From Sphingomicrobium sp. (GTDB lineage Bacteria; Pseudomonadota; Alphaproteobacteria; Sphingomonadales; Sphingomonadaceae): a DNA stretch of 64,000 nt. The notes beneath the pieces are model-generated. The model did no database searches. It was not told the DNA's origin and worked only from the letters and a program-made list of their open reading frames with translations. The translations under genes and the position numbers were made by a program. Location: positions 25,880-89,879 of the forward strand of contig JBQCIU010000040.1 of NCBI GenBank assembly GCA_051953395.1, written 5' to 3'. This document shows positions 35,832-59,633 of the stretch, piece after piece; position 1 is the first letter of the stretch, and each line of letters starts with the position of its first letter.

Positions 35832-35835
35832 CGCG

Positions 35836-38056: not shown

Positions 38057-38059
38057 GTG

Positions 38060-41552: not shown

Positions 41553-41860
41553 CCTACTCCATCGCGATCGCGATCAAGCTTCAGTGAGTATCCCGGATCG
41601 CCTGCTCGAACCGGAGCGGCGCCGGCTGCGCGGGCTTCGGCGCAATTTGCAAACGGACGGTTCGAATGCGACGAAGCTACGCCGCGACTTCCGGAGTGTG
41701 CAATGGATGCCGCTTTCCGGTGACAATGATTATCGCCTGTCTTCCGGTTGTGGTGACACCCGTTTGCATCGAGTCCTCCCGGATGGGCTGAGGTCGGCGA
41801 GGAGGCCGATACGGCAACGAATGGCGACGCAAGCAATACGAACACGCTCAGCAGGCGCAT
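41543..41860 (-). CDS. Excalibur calcium-binding domain protein with a His-rich N-terminal motif
   Basis: AHPGGLDANGCH...HCH and FANCAEARAAGAAPV..GDPGY..KLDRDRDGVGCE (DxDxDG loop). Confidence 0.85.
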   Translation of the reverse strand: MRLLSVFVLLASPFVAVSASSPTSAHPGGLDANGCHHNRKTGDNHCHRKAASIAHSGSRGVASSHSNRPFANCAEARAAGAAPVRAGDPGYSLKLDRDRDGVGCE

Positions 41861-43309: not shown

Positions 43310-43754
43310 GCCCTCGCCGGCCCGCAGCCGCAACATGGCGGCAATCGGACCGAAGGACACGAAGCCCGAGCTCATCGTCAGGAAGCTGCTCCACAGGGCG
43401 GGCTTCCGATTCCGACTTCATCGAAAAGATCTGCCCGGCAAACCGGATCTGACTCTGCCGAAGTGGAACGCGCTCATTGAGGTGCAGGGCTGCTTCTTCC
43501 ACTCGCATGATTGTCACTTCGTCAGGAAGCGGCCTGCCGACAATGCTGAGTTCTGGGCGAAGAAGCTGGATGGGAATGTCGCGCGGGATCGAAAAAATGC
43601 CGAGGCCGCTGCAGCACTGGGGTGGCGCAGACTTGTCGTGTGGCAGTGCGCCCTGACCGGGAAAGCGCGACTTGATCAGACGGACCTGCTTTCCCGGATT
43701 TCCGAATGGCTCCGCGGGAACGACAGGACAGGCGAGATCCGCGGGACGGACTGA
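43302..43754 (+). CDS. vsr: Very short patch repair endonuclease
   Basis: RSRNMAAI..KDTKPE..VRK.LH..GFRFRLH...LPGKPD...GCFFH.H.C. Start uncertain (TTG 43302). Confidence 0.9.
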   Translation: MRKPSPARSRNMAAIGPKDTKPELIVRKLLHRAGFRFRLHRKDLPGKPDLTLPKWNALIEVQGCFFHSHDCHFVRKRPADNAEFWAKKLDGNVARDRKNAEAAAALGWRRLVVWQCALTGKARLDQTDLLSRISEWLRGNDRTGEIRGTD

Positions 43755-43798
43755 CACCGGGATTGCGGCGGAGATGATGGGGCGTCATCGTTCGCTGC

Positions 43799-45142
43799 AT
43801 GCCCGTGCGTACCATTCCGGAGCTGCAGCAGCTGTTCGCCCGTCACGGCGTCCGCACGCTCTACATCAAGCATCTCGCGCCGAAGCAGGATAACGAGAAG
43901 AACCAGATCTATCTGGGCAAGGGCCTCGACGGCGTCCTCAACCTGTTTCCCGCGCGGATTGTCGAGCGGTCGGCGAGTGAGAGCACTGCAAAGCCGAAAT
44001 CCAGGACCGGAAAGCCGAAGCTCGAAGGGCTGATCGAACTCGCGTGGCTGCAGGAGGGCGGAGCTCTTGCGCGTGTGCCCGGCGCGCGCATTATCGATTA
44101 CTTCCAGTATCCGGAGGCTCGCCTCTCGGGGTTCCTCGCTGGATGTGAAGCCGCGCCCCGAGCGCTCCGCCGCGACGGGCTCAGCGACTTCGGCCGACGG
44201 ATCCTCGTGCTCGGAACGACGCCTTCCGGTCTGGTCGTGGGGAAGGTCCTCACCGAGCGTGATGATCCGCTGGTGCGGGATTTTCCGGAGCTCCCGGTGC
44301 TCGCAGCAGTACCGGTCTTCAGAGTCCTTTCTGTTGCCGGGGCTGCGGGCGTTTCGCCTCTTCAACTGCTGCTCGGTGAACTGCGGCAGATCGTTTCTGC
44401 AGGGTGGCACGCATCCGTGATCCTCAAGCCCGGCGCGTCGTCGCCGGTACCGTTCAGCGGCAATCAGGGTGCCGGCTACACGCTCGAGGCGTTGCTCGGT
44501 GTTGCCGCGAATGCCGCCAAGGAGCCCGACGCTCACGGCTACGAGATCAAGAGCTACCGTGGCGATCGGATCAGCCTCATGACCCCGACGCCGGATGGCG
44601 GATACCAGGGCGAACACAGCTTTCGGGAGTTCATGGAGCGGTACGGGCGGGAAGCGAAAAAGGCCGACGGCAGCCGCCGGTTTACCGGTCTGCATCGGGT
44701 GGGATCCGTCTCTGCGACAACCGGTCTCGGACTTCGGGTGCGCGGCTACGATCCGCATGCGGACAGCTTTGATGCGGATGGCATCGCCGTTGAAATGTTC
44801 GATCCCGAAACCGGGACGGTGGCTGCCTCCTGGTCGCTTGAGCGGCTGGCAAACAGCTGGAACGCAAAGCACGCGTCGGCGATGTATGTGCCGGCCGAAG
44901 CCCGCGAAACTGCCGACGGCGAAGCTCAATATCGCTATGGTTCAGAGGTCCTGGTCGGCGAGGGAACCGACGTCTTTCGATTGTTGCGGGCGATTCACCG
45001 CGGTCTCGTGTGGTACGACCCGGCGGACAGCATCTATGCTGACGGTACCGCGAAGGTAAGGCCGCAGTGGCGGACGGGCTCGCGTAGGCTCGAGCAGACC
45101 ATGCACACGCTCTACCGCAGCGCTCGTCAGGTGAGGATCTGA
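43799..45142 (+). CDS. MvaI/BcnI family restriction endonuclease
   Basis: GAGYTLEALLGVAAN...PD..GYEIKS catalytic segment; follows dcm-vsr. Confidence 0.8.
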   Translation: MPVRTIPELQQLFARHGVRTLYIKHLAPKQDNEKNQIYLGKGLDGVLNLFPARIVERSASESTAKPKSRTGKPKLEGLIELAWLQEGGALARVPGARIIDYFQYPEARLSGFLAGCEAAPRALRRDGLSDFGRRILVLGTTPSGLVVGKVLTERDDPLVRDFPELPVLAAVPVFRVLSVAGAAGVSPLQLLLGELRQIVSAGWHASVILKPGASSPVPFSGNQGAGYTLEALLGVAANAAKEPDAHGYEIKSYRGDRISLMTPTPDGGYQGEHSFREFMERYGREAKKADGSRRFTGLHRVGSVSATTGLGLRVRGYDPHADSFDADGIAVEMFDPETGTVAASWSLERLANSWNAKHASAMYVPAEARETADGEAQYRYGSEVLVGEGTDVFRLLRAIHRGLVWYDPADSIYADGTAKVRPQWRTGSRRLEQTMHTLYRSARQVRI

Positions 45143-45629: not shown

Positions 45630-46043
45630 ATGGAAGACCTGGCCCGTCAGATTTCCGCTCTCGAAAAACTGCGTAAGGCTGAGCTGAGGGAGCGATGGAC
45701 GAAGGTCACCGCACGAAGAGCTCCGAGTGTCAGCGCGCCGCTGCTGCGTCTGGCGATCGCGTGGGAGCTGCAGGCGCGCATGTACGGTGGCCTCTCCCGT
45801 CAGACGCAGCAGCGGCTTGAGCAGGTCGCACGCGGGAAGACCCGCACGCGCACCTCAGAACCGGGCATGCGGCTGGTACGCGCCTGGAACGGACGCACGC
45901 ACATTGTCACAGTCGGAGAGGACGGCGTCATCCGCTGGAACGACCGGGAGTGGCGAAGCCTCAGCGAGGTTGCCCGCGCAATCACTGGAACGCGCTGGTC
46001 GGGGCCCGCCTTCTTCGGTCTAAAGCAGAAGCGCGTTGCGTGA
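45630..46043 (+). CDS. DUF2924 family protein
   Basis: AWELQAR.YGGL, PG.RLVR.W.G..H.V.V, SLSEVARAITGTRWSGPAFFGL. Confidence 0.88.
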   Translation: MEDLARQISALEKLRKAELRERWTKVTARRAPSVSAPLLRLAIAWELQARMYGGLSRQTQQRLEQVARGKTRTRTSEPGMRLVRAWNGRTHIVTVGEDGVIRWNDREWRSLSEVARAITGTRWSGPAFFGLKQKRVA

Positions 46044-47725
46044 CTCAGGTTCGCTGCGCCATCTACACCCGCAAGTCGAGCGAGGAAGGGCTCGAGCAGG
46101 ACTTCAACTCCCTGCATGCGCAGCGGGAGGCCTGCTCCGCATACGTGCTCAGCCAGGCCAGCGAGGGCTGGACCGCGCTTCCTGATGAATATGACGACGG
46201 CGGTCTGTCGGGCGGATCGCTCGGCAGGCCCGCGCTGCAGCGGCTGCTTGAGGACATCGAGGTCGGTCGGATCGACATCGTTGTCGTCTACAAGGTTGAT
46301 CGGCTGACCCGGTCGCTGCTCGACTTTGCCAAACTTGTCGAGGCGTTTGACGGGGCAGGCGTGTCTTTCGTATCGGTGACCCAGTCGTTCAACACCACCA
46401 CGAGTATGGGGCGCCTGACGCTGAACATGCTGCTGAGCTTCGCGCAGTTCGAGCGCGAGGTCACAGCCGAGCGCATTCGCGACAAGATTGCGGCGTCCAA
46501 GGCCAGAGGCATGTGGATGGGCGGAACTCCGCCGCTCGGTTACGCTCCCGACGGTCGGAGCCTCGCGATTGTCGAGGAACACGCTGGCCTCGTTCGGATG
46601 ATCTACGGGCGCTATCGCGAGCTCGGCAACGTGCGGCACCTGGCCGAAGAGCTGCAGGCTAAGGAGATCCTCACTCCGGTTCGAAGCACCCGCACCGGCA
46701 GGACCTTCGGCGGGTGCGCGTTCAGCCGCGGGCAGCTCTACGCCATTCTCCGCAACCCGGTCTACGTTGGTGACATCGCGCACCACGGCAAGGTGCACCC
46801 CGGTAACCATCCGGCGATCATCGACCGCGAGACGTGGGAGTCAGTTCAGACGCAGCTTGCCGACAACATCAGAGGCAAGCGTTCAGCCCGAGAAGCAAAC
46901 GCCAGCATGCTCTCGGGCCGGCTGTTCGACGAAACCGGAGAACCGCTGATCGCGGTGCACAGTCGCAAGGGCGACCGTCGGTATCGCTACTACGTCAGCA
47001 GGTCAGCGCACCATCAGGATGGGCGTAATCGTCGCACGACCGTCCGCATGCCGGCGAGCGATATTGAACAGCTGGTCTGCACTGAGCTGGCGAAGATGCT
47101 CGGCAGGTCAGTCGATCTGCTCGCAAGGTGTCACATCGATGTTGCGCCATCGCAGCTTGAGACGGCCCTGGAGAAGTGCGCAAAGCTGGCCATCAGAGCG
47201 GCGAAGCGCGACCAGACGCTCGTCCGCACATCCGTCGAAAGCGTCAGCGTGCACCCTGACGCGGTCGAGATCGCCGTCACTCCGGCGGGGCTGACGAAGC
47301 TGCTCGGGCTGGTGGACCCGAACGACGCGACACCAGTCGTCCACCGCGTTGCGGCACGTCTCACGCGCACTGGCCGCGCATTGCGTTTGGTCGACGACAG
47401 CGGTTTAGCTGCTTGTGAAGCGGCCCCTGACGAGACGATGGCACGGCTCGTCGTTCGGGCTCGAACCTGGTGGGCAACGCTGGAGCAGACAGGCCAGACG
47501 GTTTCTGAGCTTGCCACCTCGGAAGGCGTGACAGCCTCATATCTGACGCGTGTGCTCAGGCTCGCGTTTCTTTCGCCCAAGGTTGTATCTGCGGTTCTCA
47601 GTGGCTCATTGCGCGCAGGTATCGATTCATCGCGTCTCTTCTGCGCCGACGCCATCACTCTCGATTGGGCCGGACAACGTCGCGCGCTGCTGCCGAGAGA
47701 GTCCGCGGATGCAACATCGTCGTAG
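46040..47725 (+). CDS. Large serine recombinase (second copy)
   Basis: RCAIYTRKSSEEGLEQDFNSLHAQREAC, VVYKVDRLTRSL, LLSFAQFEREVTAERIRDKI, GGTPPLGY. GTG start overlaps the DUF2924 stop. Confidence 0.93.
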   Translation: MTQVRCAIYTRKSSEEGLEQDFNSLHAQREACSAYVLSQASEGWTALPDEYDDGGLSGGSLGRPALQRLLEDIEVGRIDIVVVYKVDRLTRSLLDFAKLVEAFDGAGVSFVSVTQSFNTTTSMGRLTLNMLLSFAQFEREVTAERIRDKIAASKARGMWMGGTPPLGYAPDGRSLAIVEEHAGLVRMIYGRYRELGNVRHLAEELQAKEILTPVRSTRTGRTFGGCAFSRGQLYAILRNPVYVGDIAHHGKVHPGNHPAIIDRETWESVQTQLADNIRGKRSAREANASMLSGRLFDETGEPLIAVHSRKGDRRYRYYVSRSAHHQDGRNRRTTVRMPASDIEQLVCTELAKMLGRSVDLLARCHIDVAPSQLETALEKCAKLAIRAAKRDQTLVRTSVESVSVHPDAVEIAVTPAGLTKLLGLVDPNDATPVVHRVAARLTRTGRALRLVDDSGLAACEAAPDETMARLVVRARTWWATLEQTGQTVSELATSEGVTASYLTRVLRLAFLSPKVVSAVLSGSLRAGIDSSRLFCADAITLDWAGQRRALLPRESADATSS

Positions 47726-47993: not shown

Positions 47994-49754
47994 CTACTTG
48001 CCCTTCAACAGTTCGGAAGTCTGCTCCGCGCCTGCGGGTAGCGACTGTTTGTGGTCGAGGAGAGCGTGGAGGAGTGCCGCTATCGTCTCGCGCTTCGCGC
48101 TCTCGTTTCGGAGCGCCTCAACTGCCGCATATGGCTTCTCACGAGTTGCCTCGTAACCGAGGTAAGCCTCCTCAAAGTTGGGAACTGACGCAATCACGCG
48201 GACCAAGTCTGGATTGGGAGAAGCGCTCACCTCATCCCAGATTCTTCCGTTCAGAGTCCATGCCGGGTTTACCTGCGACTTTGTCCCCCCGGTACTCTTG
48301 TCCTTCACTTCGATCGTCTCGGCGTCGCTATCGTGGAGAATGCTGTAGCGCGCCCCGAAATGGTTTAGGATCTTGGCGAGCGAGATCAAAGGCGCCTTTC
48401 CTCTCGCCCGTACGACAACCAGGCTTCTGAGGAGCGGCTCTGGTATCTGATCCTGCCCCTCCTCCTGCAAGAGTGCGGCAGCGACTAGCTTTAAGGCCGA
48501 GTACTCGGTGTCTCCTTCGACGAGCACGACGTGCCCGCCGAAAAAGAACTCGGCCACGTAGGGATCAAAGATATTGAGGAGTTTCAGGTGAACCCGATCA
48601 TCTTCGGAGAGCTTCGCGGTAGCGGGACGAAATAGCGTCGTACCCTCGACAGACCCAGCGTGCCCACGCTCAACCCTCACTATTGTCTCGTTGTTGCGGG
48701 AAAGGTCAATGAAACCCGGATGGTGCGTCGTCACCATCACCTGCCACCCAGCCCTCTCGGCCAAGTCATAGAGAACGTTTGCCGCCTCGTGGACGGCCCT
48801 TGGGTGCAAGCAAAGCTCCGGTTCATCGATGAGCAGTAGATGGGGCCGACCTTCATTCTTGTCGTCGCGCTCCGAAGCAACCTTTAGAGCAGCCCACAGA
48901 ATGCATCGTCGTGCACCACTGCCCTGCAGTTCAAGCGTGCTCTTGTAACCGGCAACGGGTCCGACCCGCATTTGGCTTCCGGAGAACAACGGCACCTTGT
49001 CAAACGGCGCTAGTTCTGGCGCGAACTGGACAACGTGCTCTGCGAAAATACCGGCTAGCAGCTCCGTCAGCTTCTCCTCAATCTCCGCGACATCGGCCTG
49101 TGACTGATGGATTACCTTGTTCTGGAACTCAGCGAGCCGCTGGCTGAGCTGCTCAAACTCTGTCCCCTCGCCGTCTGCAGCCGGGATGTTCTTCGCCCGC
49201 TGGTCAATCAGACTTGTAACGATCTTTGTGATCTCGGCCGCTTGCTTTTCGGGAGGGTCAAACGCCTTGACTGCATGAGGCTGAGGTCGCTGCTTGTTGG
49301 CAACGGCCGCGAACCCCCAAGGCTTTTTCGTGTCCCACTCTCCCTTGTCGTTGTTCCAGCCATGTCGGTCGCCCTTCCCCTCTTTTGAGAACACCCATCT
49401 CTCTCGGACAACCTTCACGCCGTCCATGTTCACCAGCCATTTCTCGGCAGCCGGACCTTGCACTTCGGTTTCCAGCTCAATGGTGGGCAGATTCTCGGGA
49501 TCAATCTTCCCGTTGGGGAAGTCCTCAATCGTGAGCTTTCCCGCGTTTGAACCCTCCGACATCGCCACCTCATACGCACGCAAGATTGAGCTCTTGCCGG
49601 CGTTGTTGGGTCCAACGAGGACGACGATGTTGTCGAGATCGACAACCACAGGCTTTGTGCCAATAGCTCGGAAGTTTGACACCGTGAGCCTCCGGACCTT
49701 GCCGAAGGTGACTAGATCAGCGGGTTCATCCTTGGGTTTTGCGACGGCAGCCAT
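47994..49754 (-). CDS. OLD-family ATP-dependent nuclease (ABC ATPase + TOPRIM)
   Basis: Walker A GPNNAGKS, QGSG signature, LLIDEPE.CLHP, TTHHP, TOPRIM LVEGDTE and DSD. Confidence 0.88.
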   Translation of the reverse strand: MAAVAKPKDEPADLVTFGKVRRLTVSNFRAIGTKPVVVDLDNIVVLVGPNNAGKSSILRAYEVAMSEGSNAGKLTIEDFPNGKIDPENLPTIELETEVQGPAAEKWLVNMDGVKVVRERWVFSKEGKGDRHGWNNDKGEWDTKKPWGFAAVANKQRPQPHAVKAFDPPEKQAAEITKIVTSLIDQRAKNIPAADGEGTEFEQLSQRLAEFQNKVIHQSQADVAEIEEKLTELLAGIFAEHVVQFAPELAPFDKVPLFSGSQMRVGPVAGYKSTLELQGSGARRCILWAALKVASERDDKNEGRPHLLLIDEPELCLHPRAVHEAANVLYDLAERAGWQVMVTTHHPGFIDLSRNNETIVRVERGHAGSVEGTTLFRPATAKLSEDDRVHLKLLNIFDPYVAEFFFGGHVVLVEGDTEYSALKLVAAALLQEEGQDQIPEPLLRSLVVVRARGKAPLISLAKILNHFGARYSILHDSDAETIEVKDKSTGGTKSQVNPAWTLNGRIWDEVSASPNPDLVRVIASVPNFEEAYLGYEATREKPYAAVEALRNESAKRETIAALLHALLDHKQSLPAGAEQTSELLKGK

Positions 49755-50013: not shown

Positions 50014-50385
50014 TTAGTCTTCTGTCGGCCACCCGCGGCGTTTTGCCTCAAACCAAATGTCGCCCTGTACCCGGGTCAGACGATAGACGCGTGCCGTGGG
50101 GTTATATTCGTCGTGATCGATGGTCAGAAACGCGTCACTGCCGCTGCAAGCCAGCCAATAATTCACGCCTCCAGGACCGGAATCGAAAATCTGAATGATG
50201 CCATCATCCCGATTCTGCCGCTCTGCGAAGACACGGCTGTAATCAAGATACGCGATCGACAACGCGGTCGGTTGGACTTCAACTGAGAACGGCACTTCCT
50301 TATCCCTGTCTTTAGGCAGATATGCGTAAAACCCAGAGCACGTTGAGTTCGCGGCGAGCGCGGCCGCAATAGCTAGAATCAGCAA
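50014..50385 (-). CDS. Small hypothetical secreted protein
   Basis: Signal-like N-terminus; AT-richer than flanking genes by eye. Confidence 0.6.
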   Translation of the reverse strand: MLILAIAAALAANSTCSGFYAYLPKDRDKEVPFSVEVQPTALSIAYLDYSRVFAERQNRDDGIIQIFDSGPGGVNYWLACSGSDAFLTIDHDEYNPTARVYRLTRVQGDIWFEAKRRGWPTED

Positions 50386-50611: not shown

Positions 50612-51217
50612 CTACCTAGGGTCGCGAGCCCACACCTGCCACCAGCGCCGCCTCTTGAGAGCAGGCGCCGGCTTTGGGTGGGCGGAAGACTTTGGCGCAG
50701 GCTGGTCAGCCAAGGCGAACAACGCCGGATCCTTGCCGGCCTTCTGTGCCCTATGTGTGCGAACGAGCGCGCTAAGCGTTCTTTCGACCTCCCATGGAAT
50801 CTCGTCCAGCGCGTCGGCAATCTCGATGGCTGACTTCGGTGTTTTGGTCAGAGCCGCGAAAACCTTTGAATCCAGCTCGGCGTCATACCGCGGCGAGTAG
50901 TCGCCATCATCGTGGATTCCACACCAAAGGATGCAATCCTGCCACAGAACGAAGTGGGCGCCGCATCCCCCATCGCGCCAGACGGATGGATAGAGACTCA
51001 CTTTATTCCGCGCATAGAGCCGCCACGCCTTTCCAGCGCGAGGATCGAGATTGACAGTGAGAACCGAGCCGCATCCATCCGGGCAGACCATTACCAGCGA
51101 CCTCGGCCGGCCGCGGACTACGGTGACGCTATCCCCTGGCTGCTCCAGTAACGGGTTCGCTTCGTGGCGGCTTTCGACTGTCCCTCGAAACCGGATCTTG
51201 CGTGCCGGCAGCTGCAT
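50612..51217 (-). CDS. DUF6527-like protein with a C-terminal wHTH-like extension
   Basis: MVCPDGCG...V.L...W....SLYPSVW...GC.AHF pattern; GAGG RBS before ATG 51217. Confidence 0.75.
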   Translation of the reverse strand: MQLPARKIRFRGTVESRHEANPLLEQPGDSVTVVRGRPRSLVMVCPDGCGSVLTVNLDPRAGKAWRLYARNKVSLYPSVWRDGGCGAHFVLWQDCILWCGIHDDGDYSPRYDAELDSKVFAALTKTPKSAIEIADALDEIPWEVERTLSALVRTHRAQKAGKDPALFALADQPAPKSSAHPKPAPALKRRRWWQVWARDPR

Positions 51218-52751
51218 CTTCTTTCCTCGGATTTCCACAAACTAGCCGATCGGCCACCACTAGAGCATACGCGCGACGCTTAGCGTCGATTGCGCGCAAA
51301 TTTTCACGTACCGCCTGCGGATGCTCCTCGAAGCTTCCGGCCGGATGCATCGAGCGCCGGAGCAAATACATAGCAACCGCCGACTGATAACCCGTTTCGC
51401 AGGTCCGGGCTGCTTGCGCTAGGATTCGGACTTTCCGGATCGCATTGACCCGATGCTTCCAGGGAGCGTCGGCCTCAATGGGGAGTTGCGCGCCGAGGAA
51501 GTTATCCGGCGCGAACAAGCGATCAACGTCTTCGGTCCACTCCTCTTGATCCGCGTCGAGGTCAGAAAGGCGGACGTCCATCGCCAGCGCGACCTCGAGG
51601 CAGGCAGGATCTCCGCTGATTGGCCCCTCACGAGCCGACCCCAGATCGATGAGGATAGCGTCAGCGTTCCGGACGTAGATATTTCCCGGATGAAGGTCGC
51701 CGTGAAATGGCGCCCGGTAGAAGCTTTCCTCGCCGCGCCGGTCGCATAGCTGCTCGTAGATCTGAATCGGAAGCCGACTGAGCCCAAGTTCCTCCGCGCG
51801 CTTCAAATGCTCTTCGCGGACATCCCGATTATCGAAGATGTCCTTGCCAAGCTCGCCCGCCACGGCCCGGCCGGTCACTGGGCCGCGTTGGTCGCTGAAT
51901 GATTGGGCCCACCATCCCCGAAGAGTCATGTCGAACAGGGAGTTTAGTGGCGCGCTGAAATTTCCTTCCTCGACGGCAACCCATAAGGGCTGGGCGAATT
52001 CGACGAAGTTGCCGACGAAGCAGCCCCGCCTCGCGCCTTTGACGGTCCGGTTATGGTCAATGTTCGGCCGAAGGTGGAAGGGCACGTAGAAGTCCGCATA
52101 GTCACGATAATTGCTAAGCTCGCGATCGATCTTCGAGAGCCGTCCGAGCTTCGCGAAAAATGGAAGCGGCTGGACAATCACGCTGTTGCGCCAGAATTGC
52201 GCGTGGACACGGAAGACGTCTGCCGTCTTGCCACCAACCAACGGCTCGAGCCGGATCTTCACCGCGTCGGAGAAAGCGCGCCTCAAGAGCAACTCGTCGG
52301 TTACCGAAATCTCGCAATCCTCCGGCTTTTCGATATCGAGCTCACCAGACCATCCCAGCTGACAATCATGGCGAACGAAAATTTGCGCAAGGACACTGTC
52401 CGGTGAGTTGTTCGCCGTGCCGTTGCGGACGTGTCTGAGGCGGTTCAGCCCCGCATCCTCGATCGCCTCTTGGATATGGATTGAGTCATGATCGTTGGCG
52501 GCGAGCAGGATGACTTCGACTCCATGATTGTCGATCCGCTCGAGATTCGCCTGAAGGTGCATCCGAATGGCCGTGAGTTCCAGCCCATCGGTCGAGTAGA
52601 CGATCCCGCGCACCCCGACCAAATCTGCGTCGGCGAGATCGGCGAGTGGCCGGGGGTCGAGAATGAGGTCGCGGTCGACGAACTCGTCGTTTCCGGAGCG
52701 CCTGGACCGGCCGCCGAACCAGAGAATGCGGTTACGCTTCTCGTGCATCAT
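51129..52751 (-). CDS. Protein-kinase-like phosphotransferase (APH/TCAD9-like) with an uncharacterised N-terminal domain
   Basis: GGKTADVFRV Gly loop, FAK lysine, RE (alphaC Glu), HGDLHPGN catalytic loop, IDLG (DFG-like). ATGA overlap with the E1 stop. Confidence 0.78.
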   Translation of the reverse strand: MMHEKRNRILWFGGRSRRSGNDEFVDRDLILDPRPLADLADADLVGVRGIVYSTDGLELTAIRMHLQANLERIDNHGVEVILLAANDHDSIHIQEAIEDAGLNRLRHVRNGTANNSPDSVLAQIFVRHDCQLGWSGELDIEKPEDCEISVTDELLLRRAFSDAVKIRLEPLVGGKTADVFRVHAQFWRNSVIVQPLPFFAKLGRLSKIDRELSNYRDYADFYVPFHLRPNIDHNRTVKGARRGCFVGNFVEFAQPLWVAVEEGNFSAPLNSLFDMTLRGWWAQSFSDQRGPVTGRAVAGELGKDIFDNRDVREEHLKRAEELGLSRLPIQIYEQLCDRRGEESFYRAPFHGDLHPGNIYVRNADAILIDLGSAREGPISGDPACLEVALAMDVRLSDLDADQEEWTEDVDRLFAPDNFLGAQLPIEADAPWKHRVNAIRKVRILAQAARTCETGYQSAVAMYLLRRSMHPAGSFEEHPQAVRENLRAIDAKRRAYALVVADRLVCGNPRKEDAAAGTQDPVSRDSRKPPRSEPVTGAARG

Positions 52752-54067
52752 GTTGCCGCAATCCTCGTCGGCAGCGGCCATTCATTCGCGCGCGCCAGCC
52801 CGTTGTGAGCGCCGCAGACGTAGCAATCGGAATCGATCGCCCCGGCCACCGGCCTCACCAGCCCCTTGATCCCGTCGTACCGCAGGAAACTCGCCTCGAG
52901 CGGTGCGTCAGTGACCGCCCCTAGGAACATCGAAACCGCGAGCGACGACATGGTCGAATTGAGGGAAATGACAGACGGCTGTGGCTCGTGCGCGCCCTCG
53001 ATGTACGGATCTGCTGCCCGCTGCTCGGGGGTGAGCATCTCGCGGCGGATCGTCTCGCCGTCGAGCAATTCGAGACATGAGAAGCAAGGAAGGCCCGGCG
53101 ACAGGAGCTGCACACGCCCGGTGATTTTGGCCAGCCTGCCTGCCCGGACGCTGAGGCTGACGCCCATATCAATGACCGGGATCAAATACTGATAGGCAAC
53201 TTGGCCGAGCACCGCGCGGCTCGCGTGAGAGTCCGTGCAGCCAAAAATGAGGTCGCGATCCAGTAATTCGCACGCGACCACATCGTCGGCAATGTCTCCG
53301 GCGACTATCCTGACGACCGCGTCCGGATTGATTGTCAGAATCGTTCGCCTGGTAACTTCGATCTTGGGCGTGCCGACGTCGGCGCGCGCGGCACCGACGA
53401 GACGGTTCAGGCTGGTGGCGTCGACGCTGTCAAAATCGATCAGTAGAAAATCGCTTACCCCGAGATGAGCAAGCTGCTGGACCGTGAGCGATCCGGTCCC
53501 GCCCAGTCCGACGATACCGATCTTGAGCGCAGCGATTGCTGCCTGCCCCTCGGCGCCGAAGGCGCGGACCTGCCGGTCGAACCGATCCTCAGGATCGGGC
53601 ACGAAACCATTCTTTATTCCGATCTTCTGTCCAACGGAAATGACAATTGCCTCTTCGGCAGTGTCCAGTTTCCGGGCGGCAACCCCGCCGGGCGATATGA
53701 CGATAGCGCCATGCTCGCGTCCGGGGAAACGCTGGTCGAGAAAAGAGGCAAGGCGCCGTTCACCGGCATCGTCGACCAGCGAGAAGGCCGGGACGCTATC
53801 ATCGAACGGGTGGGTGTGCATGAAGACCAGGGATGAGCCGGTCGCCCGCGCCCGCTTCGCGGCATCAAAAATGAATTCGGGCGTCAGCTGGGCCGACAGG
53901 GGCGAACGGTCGAGATAATCTGCCGGGCCGGGATAACGAATGTCGTGGACGATCAGCCGGCCGTGGCTCGGTCGCGCGAGCCCGATCGCGCAGGATTCAA
54001 CGTCCAGCCTCTCGAGAAGGTTGAACTTGGCCGTCGACCATCGGTCCGCCGTGTGTACGATCCGCAT
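52748..54067 (-). CDS. JAB/MPN peptidase - ThiF/E1 fusion
   Basis: JAB: VESCA (Glu) and HTHP...FS.VD. E1: GLGGTGS, D.D.V...SLNRL, GCTD, PG.PCFSC and CYVC zinc knuckles. Confidence 0.9.
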   Translation of the reverse strand: MRIVHTADRWSTAKFNLLERLDVESCAIGLARPSHGRLIVHDIRYPGPADYLDRSPLSAQLTPEFIFDAAKRARATGSSLVFMHTHPFDDSVPAFSLVDDAGERRLASFLDQRFPGREHGAIVISPGGVAARKLDTAEEAIVISVGQKIGIKNGFVPDPEDRFDRQVRAFGAEGQAAIAALKIGIVGLGGTGSLTVQQLAHLGVSDFLLIDFDSVDATSLNRLVGAARADVGTPKIEVTRRTILTINPDAVVRIVAGDIADDVVACELLDRDLIFGCTDSHASRAVLGQVAYQYLIPVIDMGVSLSVRAGRLAKITGRVQLLSPGLPCFSCLELLDGETIRREMLTPEQRAADPYIEGAHEPQPSVISLNSTMSSLAVSMFLGAVTDAPLEASFLRYDGIKGLVRPVAGAIDSDCYVCGAHNGLARANEWPLPTRIAAT

Positions 54068-54471
54068 CAGCGGACGTCCGCGAGGCGCCCGCGTATCGTC
54101 GCGATCCACGTCTGAAGTCGGTCGCGGCCGGGCTTCCAAGACCGTGCCAGATGATAGGAGAACCAAAGTAGGTCACCGGAACCATCGACGTGCTGGATCC
54201 CGGAGCTCTGCGGCATATTGCCATTCGCCAGACGCATATCGGCGTCGACATAGAAGCAGTCGGGATTGGCGTGCGGATAGGCCGCCGACACGAAGAAGTG
54301 CAGGGTAGCGACGGATTTCGTCCAGCCGGGCGGCACCGGCACGTCAGGCACCGACACCAGCCATTGGTTCGACACCTGCCGCATCGATGCGTTGGGGAAA
54401 CGCTCGCGCACCTCCTCCAGTTCGCGCTCAAGCGGGGTCAAAGGCGCCGGCTCCGCCGCGGTTGCACTCAC
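54067..54471 (-). CDS. Prokaryotic E2-like protein (family E, Ser-His motif)
   Basis: VPVPPGW, AYPHANPDCFYVD, LWFSYH (S..H as in W.WSRH), WKPGRD.L.TW. Coupled to the JAB-E1 gene. Confidence 0.82.
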   Translation of the reverse strand: MSATAAEPAPLTPLERELEEVRERFPNASMRQVSNQWLVSVPDVPVPPGWTKSVATLHFFVSAAYPHANPDCFYVDADMRLANGNMPQSSGIQHVDGSGDLLWFSYHLARSWKPGRDRLQTWIATIRGRLADVR

Positions 54472-54475
54472 TTGC

Positions 54476-54739
54476 CTAGGCTCCGAAGCTGGCGCCCGGA
54501 ACGAGGGTCAGGCGCACCGGCCCCTTGTCCTTGCGCAGATCGACAATGTCGCTGTCGTTCAGCAGAACGTCCGGGTCGTCGCCATGACCGTCAATCGACA
54601 GCTTGTCGTTCGGTTCGGCATTGGGCAGCCGCGCCTTGATGTCCGCGGCGGACATTTCCGGCACGTCGCTCTCATACTTCACGCCATCGACGAAGTAGAA
54701 ATACTTCTCGGGCTTGTTCCCCTTATCGTGGGCTTCCAT
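54476..54739 (-). CDS. Ubiquitin-like (multiubiquitin-domain) protein
   Basis: 87 aa with a beta-grasp-like pattern (YFYFVDG.KYE...SAADI...D.LL...D.VDL), C-terminus PGASFG-A; first gene of the E2/E1 operon. Confidence 0.8.
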   Translation of the reverse strand: MEAHDKGNKPEKYFYFVDGVKYESDVPEMSAADIKARLPNAEPNDKLSIDGHGDDPDVLLNDSDIVDLRKDKGPVRLTLVPGASFGA

Positions 54740-54790
54740 CGCTTTTCCTTCCCGTGCTGACGACGCTCACGCGCCCTTGACCCGCACCCG

Positions 54791-54872
54791 ATTTTGGACG
54801 AATCACTGGATGTCCGTCCGGATTTAGACTATGTAAATGGACTGTATGCGCTGTTCAAGTACGAATTTGGAC
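54791..54872. promoter_or_regulatory. Divergent promoter with repeated GGAC-type half-sites
   Basis: ATTTTGGAC (54791-54799), GTCCGTCC (54812-54819), ATTTAGAC (54822-54829), AAATGGAC (54835-54842), ATTTGGAC (54865-54872). Confidence 0.45.
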
Positions 54873-54893
54873 CATCACATGGAGGAGTGTGAA

Positions 54894-55280
54894 ATGGTCG
54901 AAGCAGCCCCTCGGGACCTGTCGCCGGAGCGCGAGCGGGACCGGATTGCCTTCGCCGCTTTCTTAAAACTAGCCGACCTCTGGAATCTCACCACAGACCA
55001 GCAAATCACCCTTTTGGGATCCCCTGCTCGCTCGACATTCTTCAAATGGAAAAAGGAGGGCGGCCTGCTCCCCTCCGATACCCTTGAAAGGGTCTCTCAC
55101 CTCATCAACATCCACAAGTGCCTCAATATCTTGTTCCCCGATCCGGTCAGGGCGGACGAATGGGTACGGAGGCCTGATAGATATTGGTCCGAGCAGACAG
55201 CGCTCGATCGAATGCTGTCAGGTAAGATGGCGGACATCATCGATGTTCGGCGGTATCTGGACGCGCAACGCGGAGGATAA
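54894..55280 (+). CDS. Xre/MbcA/ParS family antitoxin-like protein (HTH + DUF2384)
   Basis: AF..LADLW.LT..QQ..LLG.P..STFFKWK, ERVS.L..I...L..LF, VRRYLDAQRGG. GGAGG RBS before ATG 54894. Confidence 0.88.
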   Translation: MVEAAPRDLSPERERDRIAFAAFLKLADLWNLTTDQQITLLGSPARSTFFKWKKEGGLLPSDTLERVSHLINIHKCLNILFPDPVRADEWVRRPDRYWSEQTALDRMLSGKMADIIDVRRYLDAQRGG

Positions 55281-55281
55281 G

Positions 55282-55983
55282 TTGTACCAAGTCGTGGAGA
55301 TCGATGAGGTCTGGCTCCGCCTGATCCCGTCCCGGTTCCCGCCGGTAGACATTTACCAGCGGATTGCCGCCCCGGAGAATTGGGATGAGCTGCACGCGAT
55401 TGAGGTCATGACCAATCCTCGGGTTCGTGAACGTCATCGGCTAACGGGACTTAACGGCGTGGACTTGGGCTCAGCTCGCTTCCAGAATTGGAACCACGCC
55501 CCCTTTGCCTACCTCAATCCGGAAGGAAGCTGGCTTCTCGACCCTTTCTTCGGGGTTCTCGAACTGTCGGATTGCCTTCAAACGGCGCTCGCCGCATCCA
55601 TACGAAAGCGTGAGCTGTTCCTTTCCAGGACTAGCGAGCCGCCCCTTGACCTCGACATGCGCGTGTTAGGACATCGCGTCACGGGTAATTTCATCGATCT
55701 AACCGGGATTGACCCGGATCTCACGCAGAGCGAGCGCTGGCAGATCGGCGAAAATGCCTTGCGCTCGGATGCCGATGGCGCGCTTTTCATTTGTCCCTAT
55801 CGTCGCGGGGCTAAATGCATTTCGGTGTTCAAGGGTGACGCGCTCGGCAAGAGCGACCAGCACGACCACTTCCGGTTTGTCTGGGACGGGGTCGCCATCC
55901 GGACCGTCTACTCCTTCAACGACGCCGAAACGCTCGCCGCCAACGAGATCTTTTCGGAGGAGCCGATTTCCCGCGCGGCTTAA
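55282..55983 (+). CDS. RES-domain protein, catalytic motifs apparently degenerate
   Basis: RLIPSRFPP...TNPR...APF...GS...T.EP..LDMRV RES scaffold. TTG start inferred from the GGAGG RBS. Confidence 0.82.
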   Translation: MYQVVEIDEVWLRLIPSRFPPVDIYQRIAAPENWDELHAIEVMTNPRVRERHRLTGLNGVDLGSARFQNWNHAPFAYLNPEGSWLLDPFFGVLELSDCLQTALAASIRKRELFLSRTSEPPLDLDMRVLGHRVTGNFIDLTGIDPDLTQSERWQIGENALRSDADGALFICPYRRGAKCISVFKGDALGKSDQHDHFRFVWDGVAIRTVYSFNDAETLAANEIFSEEPISRAA

Positions 55984-56310: not shown

Positions 56311-56396
56311 CCGGCTTCGGCCGTCGCTCCGAGAGGACATAGGTGCGACGAGGAGCTGGTCCAGCTGTTCACGTCGCTCTGGACGGGGCGACGAGG

Positions 56397-57221
56397 ATGC
56401 TGACGTTCAATCAGGCGTTGCTGACGTATGGGCTGGAGCCCAGCGAAGTGCGCCTCCTGCGGCATCAGACGCGCGGGACAAATGGAGCGACGCCATACTC
56501 TCTTTGGCGTGACAGCCGCGACCGGTTCGAGGCGTACCAAGCTGCGCAACGCGTCAGCGACCGCAACCGATTGGATTCCGGCTTCTGGGCGAGCTTCGTC
56601 GCATCGCCCGACGGTCGCACGATGCTCGCGGGAGTTTATGCCGTTCAGGGTCGGGACACGGTGCCGCTGGACTGGCCGTATCCGCTCAGCGAGCGGCCCG
56701 TCGAAGGACAGGATGAACTCTATTGCCTCGACCGTTTGATGCAGTTCGCCGAACTTGAGGGGAGACTGTACGTCGAATGGGGATCGGCCACGCGCGTTTG
56801 GATCCAGCGGGCGGACCGGCAGGACAAGCAGATTACCGAACTCGCACGCGCGGTCGCCGAGCCTCAGTTCCCGGGATTCAGCGCGTTCATTGCGGACCTG
56901 TCGCAGATCGCGGCCTTGCCGGCTGCCTGGCGCGAAGCGCTCGGCGCCGCCCGGGGCATTTACTTACTCGCCTGCCCGCGAACCGGCGAGCTGTACGTCG
57001 GATCGGCCACCGGCGTCGACGGCTTTATCGGCCGCTGGGACCAGTATGCCGCCAACGGCCATGGTGGCAACGTTGGCCTCAAGGGACGCGAGCCCAGCAA
57101 CTTCCAGGTGAGCATCCTGGAAGTTGCCGGGTCGCTTGTCTCGGTCGACGAAATCATTGCTCTGGAAGAGCGGTGGAAAACGAAGCTCCGCTCGCGCCAC
57201 TCGGGGTTGAACCGTAACTGA
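56397..57221 (+). CDS. GIY-YIG nuclease with an N-terminal extension
   Basis: GIYLLAC..TGELYVGSATG...GRW..Y near the C-terminus; about 180-aa uncharacterised N-terminal domain. Confidence 0.85.
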   Translation: MLTFNQALLTYGLEPSEVRLLRHQTRGTNGATPYSLWRDSRDRFEAYQAAQRVSDRNRLDSGFWASFVASPDGRTMLAGVYAVQGRDTVPLDWPYPLSERPVEGQDELYCLDRLMQFAELEGRLYVEWGSATRVWIQRADRQDKQITELARAVAEPQFPGFSAFIADLSQIAALPAAWREALGAARGIYLLACPRTGELYVGSATGVDGFIGRWDQYAANGHGGNVGLKGREPSNFQVSILEVAGSLVSVDEIIALEERWKTKLRSRHSGLNRN

Positions 57222-57654
57222 CCCGCGGTGCGGAGTGCTTCTTGTGGCTCGCCATGAACTCTAACGCTTCGACAAGCCTGCCGGTCAACTCCTTTCGTTT
57301 CGCCAAATCCGCCGCTTCCTGTTCGGGATCGGGCTTCGGCATCATGTTGCGCCGTGCGCCCAGCTCCTTCGCAACGTTGCGCGCCGCCGCCTTATCACCT
57401 GCCAGGGCCATCGCCATCTGCTTCATCCAGAACGCTTCGTCGCTCGCCATCATCACGGTTTCGCCGTCGATCGTCACCCGGGTCTTTCGGGCCCGGGCAG
57501 TCTCAAATGCGTCGATGTGGGGCTCAGCCTTTCTGTTCTTGCCAAGCGGATTGCGGACTTCGCCGGGCTTGATCCTGCCGTTCTCGGGCGGGCGACAATA
57601 GCCGACAGCATAGTCGCCGCTGGGGGAATGCTTCACGTCACGCCGCTTGGCCAT
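57154..57654 (-). CDS. DUF5681 family protein (small-terminase-like island protein)
   Basis: Y.VGY.RPP...R.KPG...NP.G motif. The 3' end overlaps the GIY-YIG gene convergently. Confidence 0.75.
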   Translation of the reverse strand: MAKRRDVKHSPSGDYAVGYCRPPENGRIKPGEVRNPLGKNRKAEPHIDAFETARARKTRVTIDGETVMMASDEAFWMKQMAMALAGDKAAARNVAKELGARRNMMPKPDPEQEAADLAKRKELTGRLVEALEFMASHKKHSAPRVSYGSTPSGASGASFSTALPEQ

Positions 57655-59005
57655 GGGCTTCCTCCTCGGCCCGCGCGGTCGCCATTGCGGCGCGCTCGTC
57701 GAACGTCTCGCCGGTGGAAGCGTGGACTGCATTCTCGCCTGTCCACGCCTGCCACCGCCGAATTGAGAGGTCGACGTAACGCGCGTCGAGTTCGATCGCG
57801 CGTGCCCGGCGGCCCACTCGCTCGCAGGCGATGATCGTGCTGCCGCTCCCAACGAAAGGGTCGATCACCAGATCGCCCCGCCGGGTGGTGTCCAGCAGCG
57901 CATCCGCGATCATCCGCACCGGCTTGGGCGTGGGGTGCTCGGCGAGAATATTGCCTTCCTCGCTACCCTTGGCGCTGGTCACAGCAGCGGGATAGGTCCA
58001 GATGTTGCTGCGGTTGCGCCCGAAGCGGCCGAGCTGGACATTATTTCTCATCCGTCCGCGCGTCTTGAAGATCAGGATCAGCTCATGCTGCGAACGCAGG
58101 AATGAACCTTGTCCCGCGCGGTCCTTTGACCAAACGGCGAGGTTCACCAGCGGCCCGAGGATCGGGCGCGTCGCGTCCATGAGCAGATGCAGACTGCGCC
58201 AGTCGATTGCTTCGTAAACCACTGCCCCGGGCGCGAGATGCGGGATGAGGTTGCGGTTGAATCCCGTGAAGAGTTCGCTGAGCTCCGCCTCGCTCATCTC
58301 CCCCGAGGCCATCACGAACTCCCGGTGGCGGCCCTTGCCGGCAACGAACCCGTCGATCCGGCAGCCATAGGGAGGATCGGTGAACACTGCATGAGCCTTC
58401 GCCCCGTCCAGCAGCTGGTCGTAAACCCTGGGATCCAGGGCATTGCCATGAACCAGTCGATGCTGCCCAAGCGTCCACAGATCACCGGCCTCCGAAACCG
58501 GCACCGCGTCCAACCGGGGCACCTCATCCTCCTCTTCCGATTCCGGCTCTCCGATCATCAGGTCGATCTCTGCAACTTCGAAACCGAGATCGGTGGCCTC
58601 CAGGTCGAGCGTGGCTTCAAACTGCAGGATGTACTCGCCGATCTTGGCCCGGTCGCTGAGACCAAGGTCGCCGAGCTTCTGGTAAGCGATCGACAGCGCC
58701 TTGGCCTCGAGGGGACTGATTGCCTTCAGTCTTATGACTGGAACGGTCTCGATGCCGGCTTCCTGGGCAGCGATCAGCAGGACCTCGCCGATTACCACTT
58801 CGCTGTCGTCGGTGATGACGAGTGGCTGTTCGATCTTGAAGCGCCTGGCAATTGCTCGTGCCTTGCGCCGGTCGGCCGCCGAGAACACGCGGCAGCTGTC
58901 ACTCACCGTGAGTGCAGAGACGGGAACGATTTCGACTGCGAACGGCTGGTTCGAACCGCGCGCAGGCGCAGGCGATTCAGCGTCGATGGTGTCGATACGA
59001 GACAT
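57638..59005 (-). CDS. ParB-like N-terminal domain + N6/N4 DNA methyltransferase
   Basis: VFTDPPYG (motif IV) precedes HPT.KP and DPFVGSGST (motif I), i.e. beta-class order; the N-terminal region is ParB/Srx-like. Confidence 0.88.
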   Translation of the reverse strand: MSRIDTIDAESPAPARGSNQPFAVEIVPVSALTVSDSCRVFSAADRRKARAIARRFKIEQPLVITDDSEVVIGEVLLIAAQEAGIETVPVIRLKAISPLEAKALSIAYQKLGDLGLSDRAKIGEYILQFEATLDLEATDLGFEVAEIDLMIGEPESEEEDEVPRLDAVPVSEAGDLWTLGQHRLVHGNALDPRVYDQLLDGAKAHAVFTDPPYGCRIDGFVAGKGRHREFVMASGEMSEAELSELFTGFNRNLIPHLAPGAVVYEAIDWRSLHLLMDATRPILGPLVNLAVWSKDRAGQGSFLRSQHELILIFKTRGRMRNNVQLGRFGRNRSNIWTYPAAVTSAKGSEEGNILAEHPTPKPVRMIADALLDTTRRGDLVIDPFVGSGSTIIACERVGRRARAIELDARYVDLSIRRWQAWTGENAVHASTGETFDERAAMATARAEEEAHGQAA

Positions 59006-59543
59006 GATTATCCTCCTTTCGGTTGACTGATTTGAGGAGAATAAATCGGCAATTCTTAACGCGATTCGCGGGCCCGAGGAGCACTCATTAGGGAGGTCGC
59101 AATGAGGCAACCTGGCGCGGTTCGTCGAAGTGCTCATTATCGGTTGGAGCGAGATCATCCGGACAGCGATGTGACGGTTTCGAGCCTTGCGTCAGGCGCG
59201 CTGCGGACCCGTTATCGGGGAACAAATTTCCCATGTTACTCCCTTCCACCTGCGTGTTTCGGGGATTCGTGTCCCGTCAGATTGCTCGGAAATCGGGGAA
59301 TGCTGAGAACCGGCGTGGAGCGGAATTTTTGTAAAGTCCCATCCGAATTCCCATCCGGATGGGAAAGTGGCGCCTTAAAATCGAAACCGTACTGCCGGAA
59401 CGCGCGGCGGAGAATTGGCCTCGGAAAATCGCCAACTGCCCAGCCACATTGCTCTCTGCGGTACCGATTGACGCACAAAGTCGCGCGGAAACGCGCGATT
59501 TCGCAAGCGGATGGGAATGTCGGACGCGGGAGAGCAGACTGAG

Positions 59544-59633
<90 letters not shown>

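Follow-up and report, generated by a model that had tools for sequence, protein, structure and literature searches.

Bacterial ubiquitination-like (Bub, formerly 6E/DUF6527) operons have been described in preprints from the Corbett laboratory (Ye et al., bioRxiv 10.1101/2024.11.21.623953, later NSMB 2026). Type I Bub operons encode BubAB, a ubiquitin-like protein (Ubl) and an E2 that are fused in the text definition; BubCD, a fusion of a JAB peptidase with an E1; and BubE, a DUF6527 serine peptidase. In this pathway the Ubl is carried by a Tyr of the E1 and then by a Ser of the E2, each time as an oxyester. The residues described for Bub are Ser, His and Asp in the E2, a crossover-loop Tyr in the E1, and Ser, His and zinc Cys residues in the DUF6527 protein (10.1101/2024.11.21.623953). 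Table S1 of the Bub preprint files about 30 operons with unfused Ubl and E2 genes under Type I as well. Here we compare these systems with an operon of Sphingomicrobium sp. (assembly GCA_051953395.1, contig JBQCIU010000040.1, positions 25,880 to 89,879 of the forward strand; this whole stretch of 64,000 nucleotides is called the window). At window positions 50612-54739, on the minus strand, lie five tightly coupled open reading frames (ORFs) in a row, exactly where an earlier, sequence-only reading of the same DNA had placed them. They almost certainly constitute a Bub operon, and a gene for a kinase-like phosphotransferase, very probably a functional part of that operon, stands between bubCD and bubE. 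The five genes and the adjoining intergenic region are the following.

54476-54739, minus strand: bubA, an ORF for a single-domain ubiquitin-like protein of 87 aa.
54067-54471, minus strand: bubB, an E2 of 134 aa, with a GTG start 4 nt past the Ubl stop.
52748-54067, minus strand: bubCD, 439 aa from ATG 54067, a JAB/JAMM peptidase joined to an E1 adenylation domain.
51129-52751, minus strand: the kinase gene, 540 aa from ATG 52751, with an alternative ATG at 52781.
50612-51217, minus strand: bubE, a DUF6527 serine peptidase of 201 aa from ATG 51217, with GTG 51238 possible too.
54740-54836, no strand: the 97-bp divergent region between bubA and an Xre-like gene, presumed by position alone to be the promoter/operator.

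Gene starts were refined from the junction sequences and the lengths of homologues. The start of bubCD is most likely ATG 54067 and not the upstream TTG 54166, up to which the ORF stays open. Homologues of BubCD measure 440-449 aa, compared with 439 aa from ATG 54067, and this ATG shares 1 nt with the bubB stop (TGATG junction). The kinase and bubE most likely start at ATG 52751 and ATG 51217, respectively, and the kinase ATG overlaps the E1 stop by 4 nt (ATGA). Translational coupling is indicated by the ATGA and TGATG junctions, and the ORFs and junctions agree with the earlier description of five genes joined by overlaps or a 4-nt gap. The 3' end of the kinase gene overlaps bubE by 89 nt in another frame (51129-51217). 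Long overlaps at this junction (89-110 nt) are found in the window and its closest relatives (L006, L013, P0001, P0003, P0007 and P0008) and encode a disordered tail of about 30 residues (predicted local distance difference test, pLDDT, <50), compared with an overlap of just 4 nt in distant relatives. A simple scan of 54740-54836 found no sigma-70 consensus, and the promoter/terminator scan was uninformative.

Every catalytic residue published for Bub is present in this operon, and its best relatives in the PDB are Citrobacter BubCD for the E1 (9ea4, 1.8e-29) and Citrobacter BubB for the E2 (9eae_C, 2.7e-4). The operon is therefore assigned from its sequence to Type I Bub (formerly 6E.1/DUF6527), of the kind with unfused BubA and BubB, and the Bub-like pathway proposed by the sequence-only reading is upheld. 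Pfam recognizes the E2 as Prok-E2_E (PF14462, 4e-12), the JAB-E1 as ThiF (1e-36) and BubE as DUF6527 (PF20137, 1.3e-13). BubCD has no significant Pfam JAB match (Prok-JAB, E=0.069), and its JAB domain is seen through the motifs and the alignment with Citrobacter BubCD. In that alignment, with a two-residue tag offset of the crystal chain taken into account, R222 falls on the adenylation Arg227, Y355 on the catalytic crossover-loop Tyr370, and the JAMM Ser-x-x-Asp on the mutated Asp104. Motif conservation was judged over 54 non-redundant homologous operons. The JAMM residues E24, H84-x-H86, S96 and D99 are invariant among relatives, as are the GxGGTGS loop, D279 and two CxxC pairs of the E1, and R222 and Y355 are conserved, in agreement with the earlier view that the JAB and E1 nucleotide and zinc motifs are intact.

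The remaining components show the same correspondence. In the E2, D71 aligns with Citrobacter D299, PDCF is conserved, and the previously noted WFSYH is part of LWFS105-Y-H107, in which LWFS105-x-H107 is invariant and Ser replaces the catalytic Cys. The register of this Ser/His pair against Citrobacter S333/H335 is ambiguous by 1-2 residues (loop indels); S105-x-H107 is the sole invariant Ser-x-His in that region of the E2. BubE conserves C45, C49, S78, C85, H88 and C99, with the S(+7)C(+3)H spacing of Citrobacter S92/C99/H102 and with C45/C49/C85/C99 as the Cys4 site. The Ubl ends in ...VPGASFG86-A87, one residue beyond a conserved Gly, as had been noticed, and across the 54 operons the family pattern is VPxAxFG followed by 0-1 variable residue, which fits trimming by the JAB domain. 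The window Ubl itself has no Pfam match, and its homologues from related operons match Multi_ubiq. The C-terminal half of BubE (50612-50920) contains a conserved region past the DUF6527 core (DEIPWEV) that resembles a small helical/winged-helix domain; the protein ends in a basic/aromatic tail, KRRRWWQVW, and Pfam gives no match in this half.

Comparison with the Type I Bub operon of Citrobacter sp. RHBSTW-00271 shows that both systems have a JAB-E1 with a crossover-loop Tyr and no catalytic Cys, a Prok-E2_E E2 with Ser-x-His and Asp, a Ubl needing trimming to Gly, and a DUF6527 protein with Ser/His and Cys4. The window operon differs in adding an APH/TCAD9-like kinase between bubCD and bubE, in having separate Ubl and E2 genes, and in having a Ubl predicted as one small beta-grasp domain (87 aa) where that of Citrobacter has three domains. 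Its BubCD falls in a separate clade and shares only approximately 30% identity with the Citrobacter protein. The predicted JAB-E1 fusion with its Tyr, the Ser-type E2, the DUF6527 Ser/His and Cys4, and the Gly-ending Ubl all correspond to the Type I definition; the separate Ubl and E2 genes, with their 4-nt gap, depart from the fusion given in its text. A stop codon splitting a BubAB fusion, i.e., a pseudogene, was considered and rejected, since the unfused Ubl and E2 are conserved across the clade and unfused operons occur in Table S1. Separate Ubl and E2 genes are not new, as that table documents. The unfused operons listed there (for example those of Hyphomicrobium denitrificans, Mesorhizobium australicum and Rhizobium phaseoli) share with the window the separate Ubl and E2, the JAB-E1 and the DUF6527 protein. 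They differ in that gene numbers are consecutive, with no extra gene, in 30 of the 31 table rows compared; the remaining row, Bradyrhizobium tropiciagri, skips one gene number between E1 and DUF6527, a gap that is left uncommented and would fit this kinase.

Other conjugation-like systems were compared and set aside. Type II Bub (6E.2) has an E2-E1 fusion, BubBD, and usually no JAB, whereas the E2 here is separate and the E1 carries an N-terminal JAB. Type II cyclic-oligonucleotide-based antiphage signaling systems (CBASS), with Cap2 and Cap3, and Bil (BilABCD) share with this operon the E1/E2/JAB logic in immunity and a peptidase that trims the conjugate or reverses conjugation. In Bil, though, the JAB is separate and the E1 is a Cys-dependent protein of IAD-AAD-CYS architecture, whereas the window operon joins its JAB to one adenylation domain only and has Ser and Tyr at its catalytic positions. 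With no CD-NTase in the operon and an E1 fused to JAB instead of E2, the operon is not a CBASS, as the sequence-only reading had already judged. The E1-E2 models of PADLOC gave only weak matches, to the ThiF core.

The kinase gene is a regular member of related operons. Searches with the kinase returned 78 homologues from a word index, 557 clusters (50% identity) matching at E <=1e-30 and essentially all full length among 1.84 billion representatives scanned, and 5 loci from a genome-collection scan made with a narrower kinase alignment. The kinase-ascertained loci inspected (six gene-index contigs and five loci from genomes or metagenome-assembled genomes, MAGs) contain Ubl, Prok-E2_E, ThiF, kinase and BubE wherever the contig allows, with L004 as a partial exception in which the kinase is cut by the contig end and is not followed by BubE. 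Counted within the limits of the contigs, 12 of 12 loci ascertained through the kinase belong to operons of this order. They derive from a Methylibium-labelled assembly, Rhizobium aegyptiacum, a Gemmatimonadaceae MAG, and MAGs labelled Verrucomicrobiota, Gemmataceae and Proteobacteria. Plasmid copies of the kinase-Bub clade were found in Mesorhizobium, Rhizobium, Bradyrhizobium and Deinococcus, and the window itself matched rhizosphere and soil metagenome runs in a sequencing-run search. Neither the search of phage records nor that of viral contigs found a copy.

The converse survey started from BubCD only, with the best 80 of 510 metagenome relatives fetched. The sequence-only reading had proposed such a synteny survey for kinase-containing variants, and far from being absent from the relatives, the kinase directly follows the E1 in 64 of the 68 loci with enough downstream sequence, with a median spacing of 20 nt between the ends of the hidden Markov model (HMM) profiles. 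All five genes are on one strand in 46 of the 48 loci with room for them, and no other gene type takes the kinase slot within the clade. Chance is excluded by the recurrence of this gene order in more than 75 independent loci. Among plasmids, 122 PLSDB records have a BubCD-like gene, and identity to the window BubCD is bimodal (45-51% versus <=36%). The 45-51% class consists of 13 records, 12 of them with the kinase and the thirteenth, from Roseomonas, a remnant disrupted by an insertion sequence (IS); plasmid BubCDs without a kinase are at most 36% identical to that of the window. Kinase matches likewise total 13 PLSDB records, 12 within this high-identity class and one, Bradyrhizobium sp. 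187, that is not among the BubCD matches listed. RefSeq labels the genes of the Mesorhizobium sp. 131-2-5 plasmid copy multiubiquitin, E2/UBC, ThiF, phosphotransferase and DUF6527.

The four exceptions among the 68 loci are of two kinds. In L045 and L091 BubE directly follows the E1, and the kinase is detached and convergent, following immediately after a second Ubl paralogue whose last residue is Gly. This two-gene module of second Ubl (Ubl2) and kinase occupies 4542-6310 of L045 and 2668-4398 of L091, both on the minus strand; Ubl2 ends in ...FG and ...QG, respectively, and in L045 a small helix-turn-helix (HTH) gene lies upstream of the module. L057 and L073 are cleanly without a kinase. 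Elsewhere, the kinases of L037 and L090 are partly deleted, and L043, L069 and L072 have a tandem pair of BubE (DUF6527) genes after the kinase. In a neighbor-joining BubCD tree, effectively unrooted, the true kinase-less cases are nested among the kinase-bearing operons. This position, shared by L057, L073 and the decayed Roseomonas copy, points to secondary loss of the kinase, as judged by nested position alone.

Comparison of the five proteins over the 54 non-redundant operons demonstrated that their pairwise-identity matrices are all correlated, with the kinase-E1 correlation the highest (r=0.83). Of the five, the kinase evolves fastest (mean pairwise identity 0.30 versus 0.42-0.47), and its N-domain is the least conserved part. 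This rate and the variable N-domain would be the usual signature of a defence part that meets a variable partner. A protein of 917 aa in the representative library (P0135) is an in-frame BubCD-kinase fusion, in which ...GALARGQ is joined directly to AILWFGG..., so that the E1 lacks its ~10 C-terminal residues and the kinase its ~6 N-terminal ones. We conclude, on comparative grounds, that the kinase is probably an ancestral, stably inherited fifth component of a distinct Type I Bub clade. The sequence-only reading had described a Bub-like pathway extended by a kinase, and the extension proves to be a conserved, co-diverging member of the whole operon clade.

The kinase protein consists of a flavodoxin-like N-domain (~residues 7-127), an APH/TCAD9-like core and a disordered C-terminal tail. 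Two Pfam families match the core, TCAD9 (PF19974, 6.8e-11, 42.4 bits versus a cut-off of 40, covering profile positions 244-352 of 429) and APH (PF01636, 4.5e-6, 27.0 bits versus a cut-off of 23.2). The Gly loop, Lys, Glu, HGDxxxxN and DLG that had been read from the sequence are present, in 540-aa numbering, as GG173-174, K201, E211, H350-G-D352-x4-N357 and D369-L-G, and G174, K201, E211, H350, D352, N357 and D369 are invariant down to ~20% identity. The protein is accordingly predicted from its motifs to be an active phosphotransferase of the APH/protein-kinase-like superfamily. An AlphaFold2 model built with 26 homologues has a pLDDT of 87 and a predicted template-modelling (TM) score of 0.82. 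Foldseek places this model closest to APH(3')-Ia, methylthioribose (MTR) kinase, choline kinase and glucosamine kinase (E ~1e-8), with target TM scores of 0.5-0.6 and 13-18% identity, and with probability 1.0 for APH(3')-Ia and MTR kinase. The kinase profile matches PDB entries at the catalytic loop alone, and these include both kinds of kinase (fructosamine kinase, YihE, Rio2 and MTR kinase). There is no Pkinase match in Pfam; matches to protein kinases are confined to the catalytic loop, at E 0.002 or weaker. Of the earlier term 'protein kinase', then, the kinase part is borne out by the intact motifs, and the protein part is unproven, the nearest folds being aminoglycoside, methylthioribose and choline kinases. 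The N-domain is a five-stranded alpha/beta domain of ~120 residues that reaches a pLDDT of 88.6 when modelled alone. Foldseek relates it to generic flavodoxin/CheY-like folds alone (TM ~0.5), and a profile search with the isolated N-domain against a large protein database gave one uninformative match and no alternative fusion partners. No specific kinase model in PADLOC (2023) or NCBIfam (2026) matches the protein.

Two groups of known kinases invite comparison. CapK, together with CapS, regulates Bub, CBASS and Bil operons (Chambers et al., EMBO J 2026, PMC13373217). It resembles the kinase described here in being genetically linked to Bub operons and in representing phosphorylation as a control of the pathway. 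CapK, however, is an HTH-STAS-GHKL kinase encoded upstream, which acts on transcription through its substrate, the repressor CapS (STAS-wHTH), whereas the window kinase has an APH/protein-kinase-like fold, lies between E1 and BubE and has no STAS partner. Identity with CapK was therefore rejected. The TCAD9/APH kinases of the vWA-MoxR ternary conflict systems (Kaur et al., eLife 2020) likewise combine an active APH-like core with a conflict system, but only the catalytic-loop region matches; the flavodoxin-like N-domain and the Bub context differ, and vWA and MoxR partners are lacking. The words 'kinase', 'phosphotransferase' and 'APH' have zero occurrences in the Bub preprints and their supplements, a comparison to which the final journal version, where a passing mention is possible, does not belong. 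Full-text literature searches found no other description of an in-operon Bub kinase, and CapK was the only published Bub-linked kinase found. The sequence-only reading had pointed to no earlier description of this architecture. That holds for the in-operon kinase, which the Bub preprints do not mention, and fails for the unfused Ubl and E2, which already appear in Table S1. The new part is the conserved, widespread in-operon kinase, which extends a recently described family and does not make a new kind of system.

From the gene identities, motifs, synteny, co-divergence and single fusion observed here we infer the biochemistry, association, substrate and defence link that follow. By homology with Citrobacter, the JAB domain of BubCD would remove Ala87 after Gly86, and the E1 would adenylate Gly86 and then carry the Ubl on Tyr355 as an oxyester. 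The E2 would take the Ubl on Ser105, from which it would be passed to a target, and BubE, as a Ser/His peptidase, would reverse conjugation. As to the fifth protein, our leading proposal, narrowly short of probable, is that the kinase is a stoichiometric, E1-associated sensing or regulatory subunit whose ATP-dependent phosphorylation gates conjugation. The variable N-domain and the lobes would recognize a signal or target, and phosphorylation of a protein in or beside the pathway would then control conjugation when phage infects the cell or stress arises; the Ubl, BubE, the conjugation target and the nucleophilic hydroxyls of E1 and E2 are the candidate substrates. The fixed slot, co-divergence, coupled translation, E1 fusion and fast evolution favor an integral subunit over a swappable toxin. 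That the kinase acts on a protein as regulator or sensor, as opposed to being an effector or a small-molecule kinase, is a possibility that we advance tentatively. The Ubl2-kinase module of L045 and L091 suggests that Ubl and kinase may be directly related in function. A narrower version, which we consider rather unlikely, is that the kinase phosphorylates the cascade itself (the Ubl, or the E1 Tyr and E2 Ser nucleophiles) and so acts as a direct on/off gate of the oxyester pathway. As the Bub nucleophiles are hydroxyls, phosphorylation could in principle block them.

Several observations weigh against the proposal of a protein-directed regulatory subunit and its role in defence. The nearest structural relatives of the kinase are small-molecule kinases, at TM scores of just ~0.5-0.6, its sequence profiles are equidistant from protein and small-molecule kinases, and its N-domain is without an informative relative by Foldseek or profile search. 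The fast evolution of the kinase could reflect weak constraint in place of an arms race, and the E1-kinase fusion is one case only (P0135). The two conserved Ser/Thr positions of the Ubl occur in the kinase-less L057 and L073 as well, and comparison of the 54 operons with these two loci revealed no kinase-specific phospho-acceptor in the Ubl. Low-molecular-weight substrates were proposed for APH-type kinases of conflict systems by Kaur et al. (eLife 2020), and the authors of the Bub work have so far reported no phage protection. The sequencing-run search found no RNA-seq runs containing the locus.

Of the other explanations, the least unlikely, though still unlikely, is that the kinase is the effector of the system, and possibly a conjugation substrate too: conjugation of the Ubl to the kinase, or its removal by BubE or the JAB domain, would activate a kinase of broad specificity, and phosphorylation of host or phage proteins would then halt phage growth, in an abortive-infection-like response analogous to the priming of the CD-NTase by Cap2 in type II CBASS. 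Canonical Bub operons have no recognizable effector, and this kinase is catalytically intact by its motifs. In the loci examined it never occurs without Bub genes, and Bub cores persist without a kinase or with a decayed one (L037, L057, L073 and L090), which is the pattern of a toxin restrained by its partners. The Ubl2-kinase module of L045 and L091 would also fit a pairing of Ubl and kinase. Defence effectors, however, are usually swapped between relatives, whereas here one family fills the slot over a deep clade and co-diverges with the E1. The C-terminus of the kinase, moreover, is unconserved and without a Gly-type tail, and apart from the catalytic Lys no Lys of the kinase is conserved at >=80% as a possible Ubl acceptor. 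It is improbable that the kinase instead phosphorylates a small molecule. The substrate would then be, for instance, a second messenger, a nucleotide, a sugar or a compound resembling an antibiotic, and the coupling to Bub would be indirect, such as through a signal that the kinase produces or removes or through the modification of a conjugation acceptor other than a protein. The best Foldseek matches (APH(3'), methylthioribose, choline and glucosamine kinases) and the above-threshold Pfam APH match agree with such a substrate, as does the proposal of Kaur et al. mentioned above. These matches are nevertheless weak (13-18% identity, TM ~0.5), YihE and Rio2, which are protein kinases of the same fold, are similar by sequence, and no transporter or metabolic gene is conserved nearby in related loci; the coupling to Bub, the way in which the kinase co-diverges with E1, and its fusion to an E1 all point towards a protein complex.

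Another explanation is that the kinase-fold protein serves mainly as an adaptor without catalysis, in the manner of an E3, which would recruit targets to E2~Ubl, with ATP binding in a purely structural or allosteric role. Neither Bub nor Bil operons encode an E3, and such an adaptor would agree with the variable N-domain and fast evolution, as expected for target recognition, and with the association with E1 suggested by the P0135 fusion. We regard this as highly improbable. The base Asp, the Asn, the metal-binding Asp and the Lys-Glu pair are invariant to ~20% identity, and pure scaffolds usually lose such residues, as in the inactive kinases of ternary systems (Kaur et al., eLife 2020). Least credible of all, to the point of being negligible, is an unrelated passenger gene inserted in the operon. 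The published Bub core has four functions and no kinase, and kinase-less relatives exist; against this, the slot is kept in 64 of 68 independently ascertained loci, start and stop overlaps join the kinase to its neighbors, the kinase co-diverges with every other component, and the kinase-less cases are nested in the clade as losses. Together, the synteny survey, the co-divergence and the tree effectively refute the passenger.

A defence role for the operon is plausible by genomic context. Like Type I Bub, which occurs in mobile defence islands and has CapH/CapP regulators among its relatives, the operon lies in a defence island, here beside tRNA-Ser, that also contains OLD, Uzume, restriction-modification (R-M) and ZorA-like genes. 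The surrounding features of the window are the following.

27770-30460, minus strand: 896-aa ORF with a weak PADLOC match to mad8 (1.8e-7; methylation-associated defence).
35713-41723, plus strand: cluster of six ORFs, mostly without Pfam matches, which includes the ZorA-like and OmpA/MotB-like genes.
38057-39307, plus strand: ZorA-like coiled-coil protein (PADLOC ZorA, 2.8e-10).
39308-40228, plus strand: OmpA/MotB-like protein, directly after the ZorA-like gene.
42074-45142, plus strand: type II R-M pair, a C5 cytosine methylase with an N-terminal HTH and an MvaI/BcnI-family endonuclease.
45630-47725, plus strand: DUF2924 protein and large serine recombinase, mobile-element backbone.
47994-49754, minus strand: OLD-family ATPase-TOPRIM nuclease (PADLOC Old, 1e-81), adjoining the operon.
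50014-50385, minus strand: 123-aa ORF, 226 nt downstream of bubE, with a hydrophobic N-terminus and no match in any library.
54837-55280, plus strand: Xre-like antitoxin (Pfam Xre-like-HTH and Xre_MbcA_ParS_C), divergent from the operon.
55084-55983, plus strand: ORF of a RES-domain toxin of the NAD+ phosphorylase type (Pfam RES), true start uncertain.
56343-57221, plus strand: Uzume UzuA (PADLOC, 4e-77), with a weak GIY-YIG match.
57154-59158, minus strand: DUF5681 protein and ParB-N6/N4 methylase, beside tRNA-Ser.
59544-59633, minus strand: tRNA-Ser, beside the island.

The cluster at 35713-41723 is possibly a defence system, either Zorya-like or unclassified. Upstream of related operons there is usually a divergent pair of HTH and Peptidase_M78 genes of the CapH/CapP type (at least 17 related loci), and in the window, on the Mesorhizobium plasmid NZ_AP023251 and in the metagenome loci L019 and L023 this slot is taken by the Xre/RES pair. 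Outside the window the pair lies at 2727-3817 in L093, 3035-4185 in L019 and 2885-4111 in L023. Xre/RES is a recurrent neighbor; it could travel along with the operon as a toxin-antitoxin pair, or it could serve the system as regulator or effector. In L006 (1-4528) and L013 the DUF2924/recombinase and DUF5681/methylase backbone genes adjoin each other beside a related Bub-kinase operon. This arrangement suggests that a shared integrative element may carry different cargo.

Bub pathways were described in 2024-2026, and their targets and biological role are still to be found. A large, coherent Bub clade that keeps an apparently active kinase attached to the E1 gene offers a handle on both the regulation and the targets of Bub, as the substrate of the kinase is likely either a component of the pathway, which would show by what means conjugation is switched, or the target, which would indicate what Bub acts on. 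Defence-annotation tools (PADLOC 2023 and NCBIfam 2026) lack a specific model of the kinase. In eukaryotes, PINK1-Parkin phospho-ubiquitin signalling provides an analogy of a kinase dedicated to a ubiquitin-type pathway, should the kinase here act on the Ubl or its enzymes; there is no homology past the kinase fold, organism and chemistry differ, and Ubl phosphorylation in Bub is hypothetical. If the kinase does gate the cascade, it would be a bacterial counterpart of phospho-ubiquitin signalling, with a logic barred to thioester-based cascades. More broadly, if the proposed role is true, the Bub kinase would be the first hard-wired link found between phosphorylation and ubiquitin-like conjugation in bacteria.

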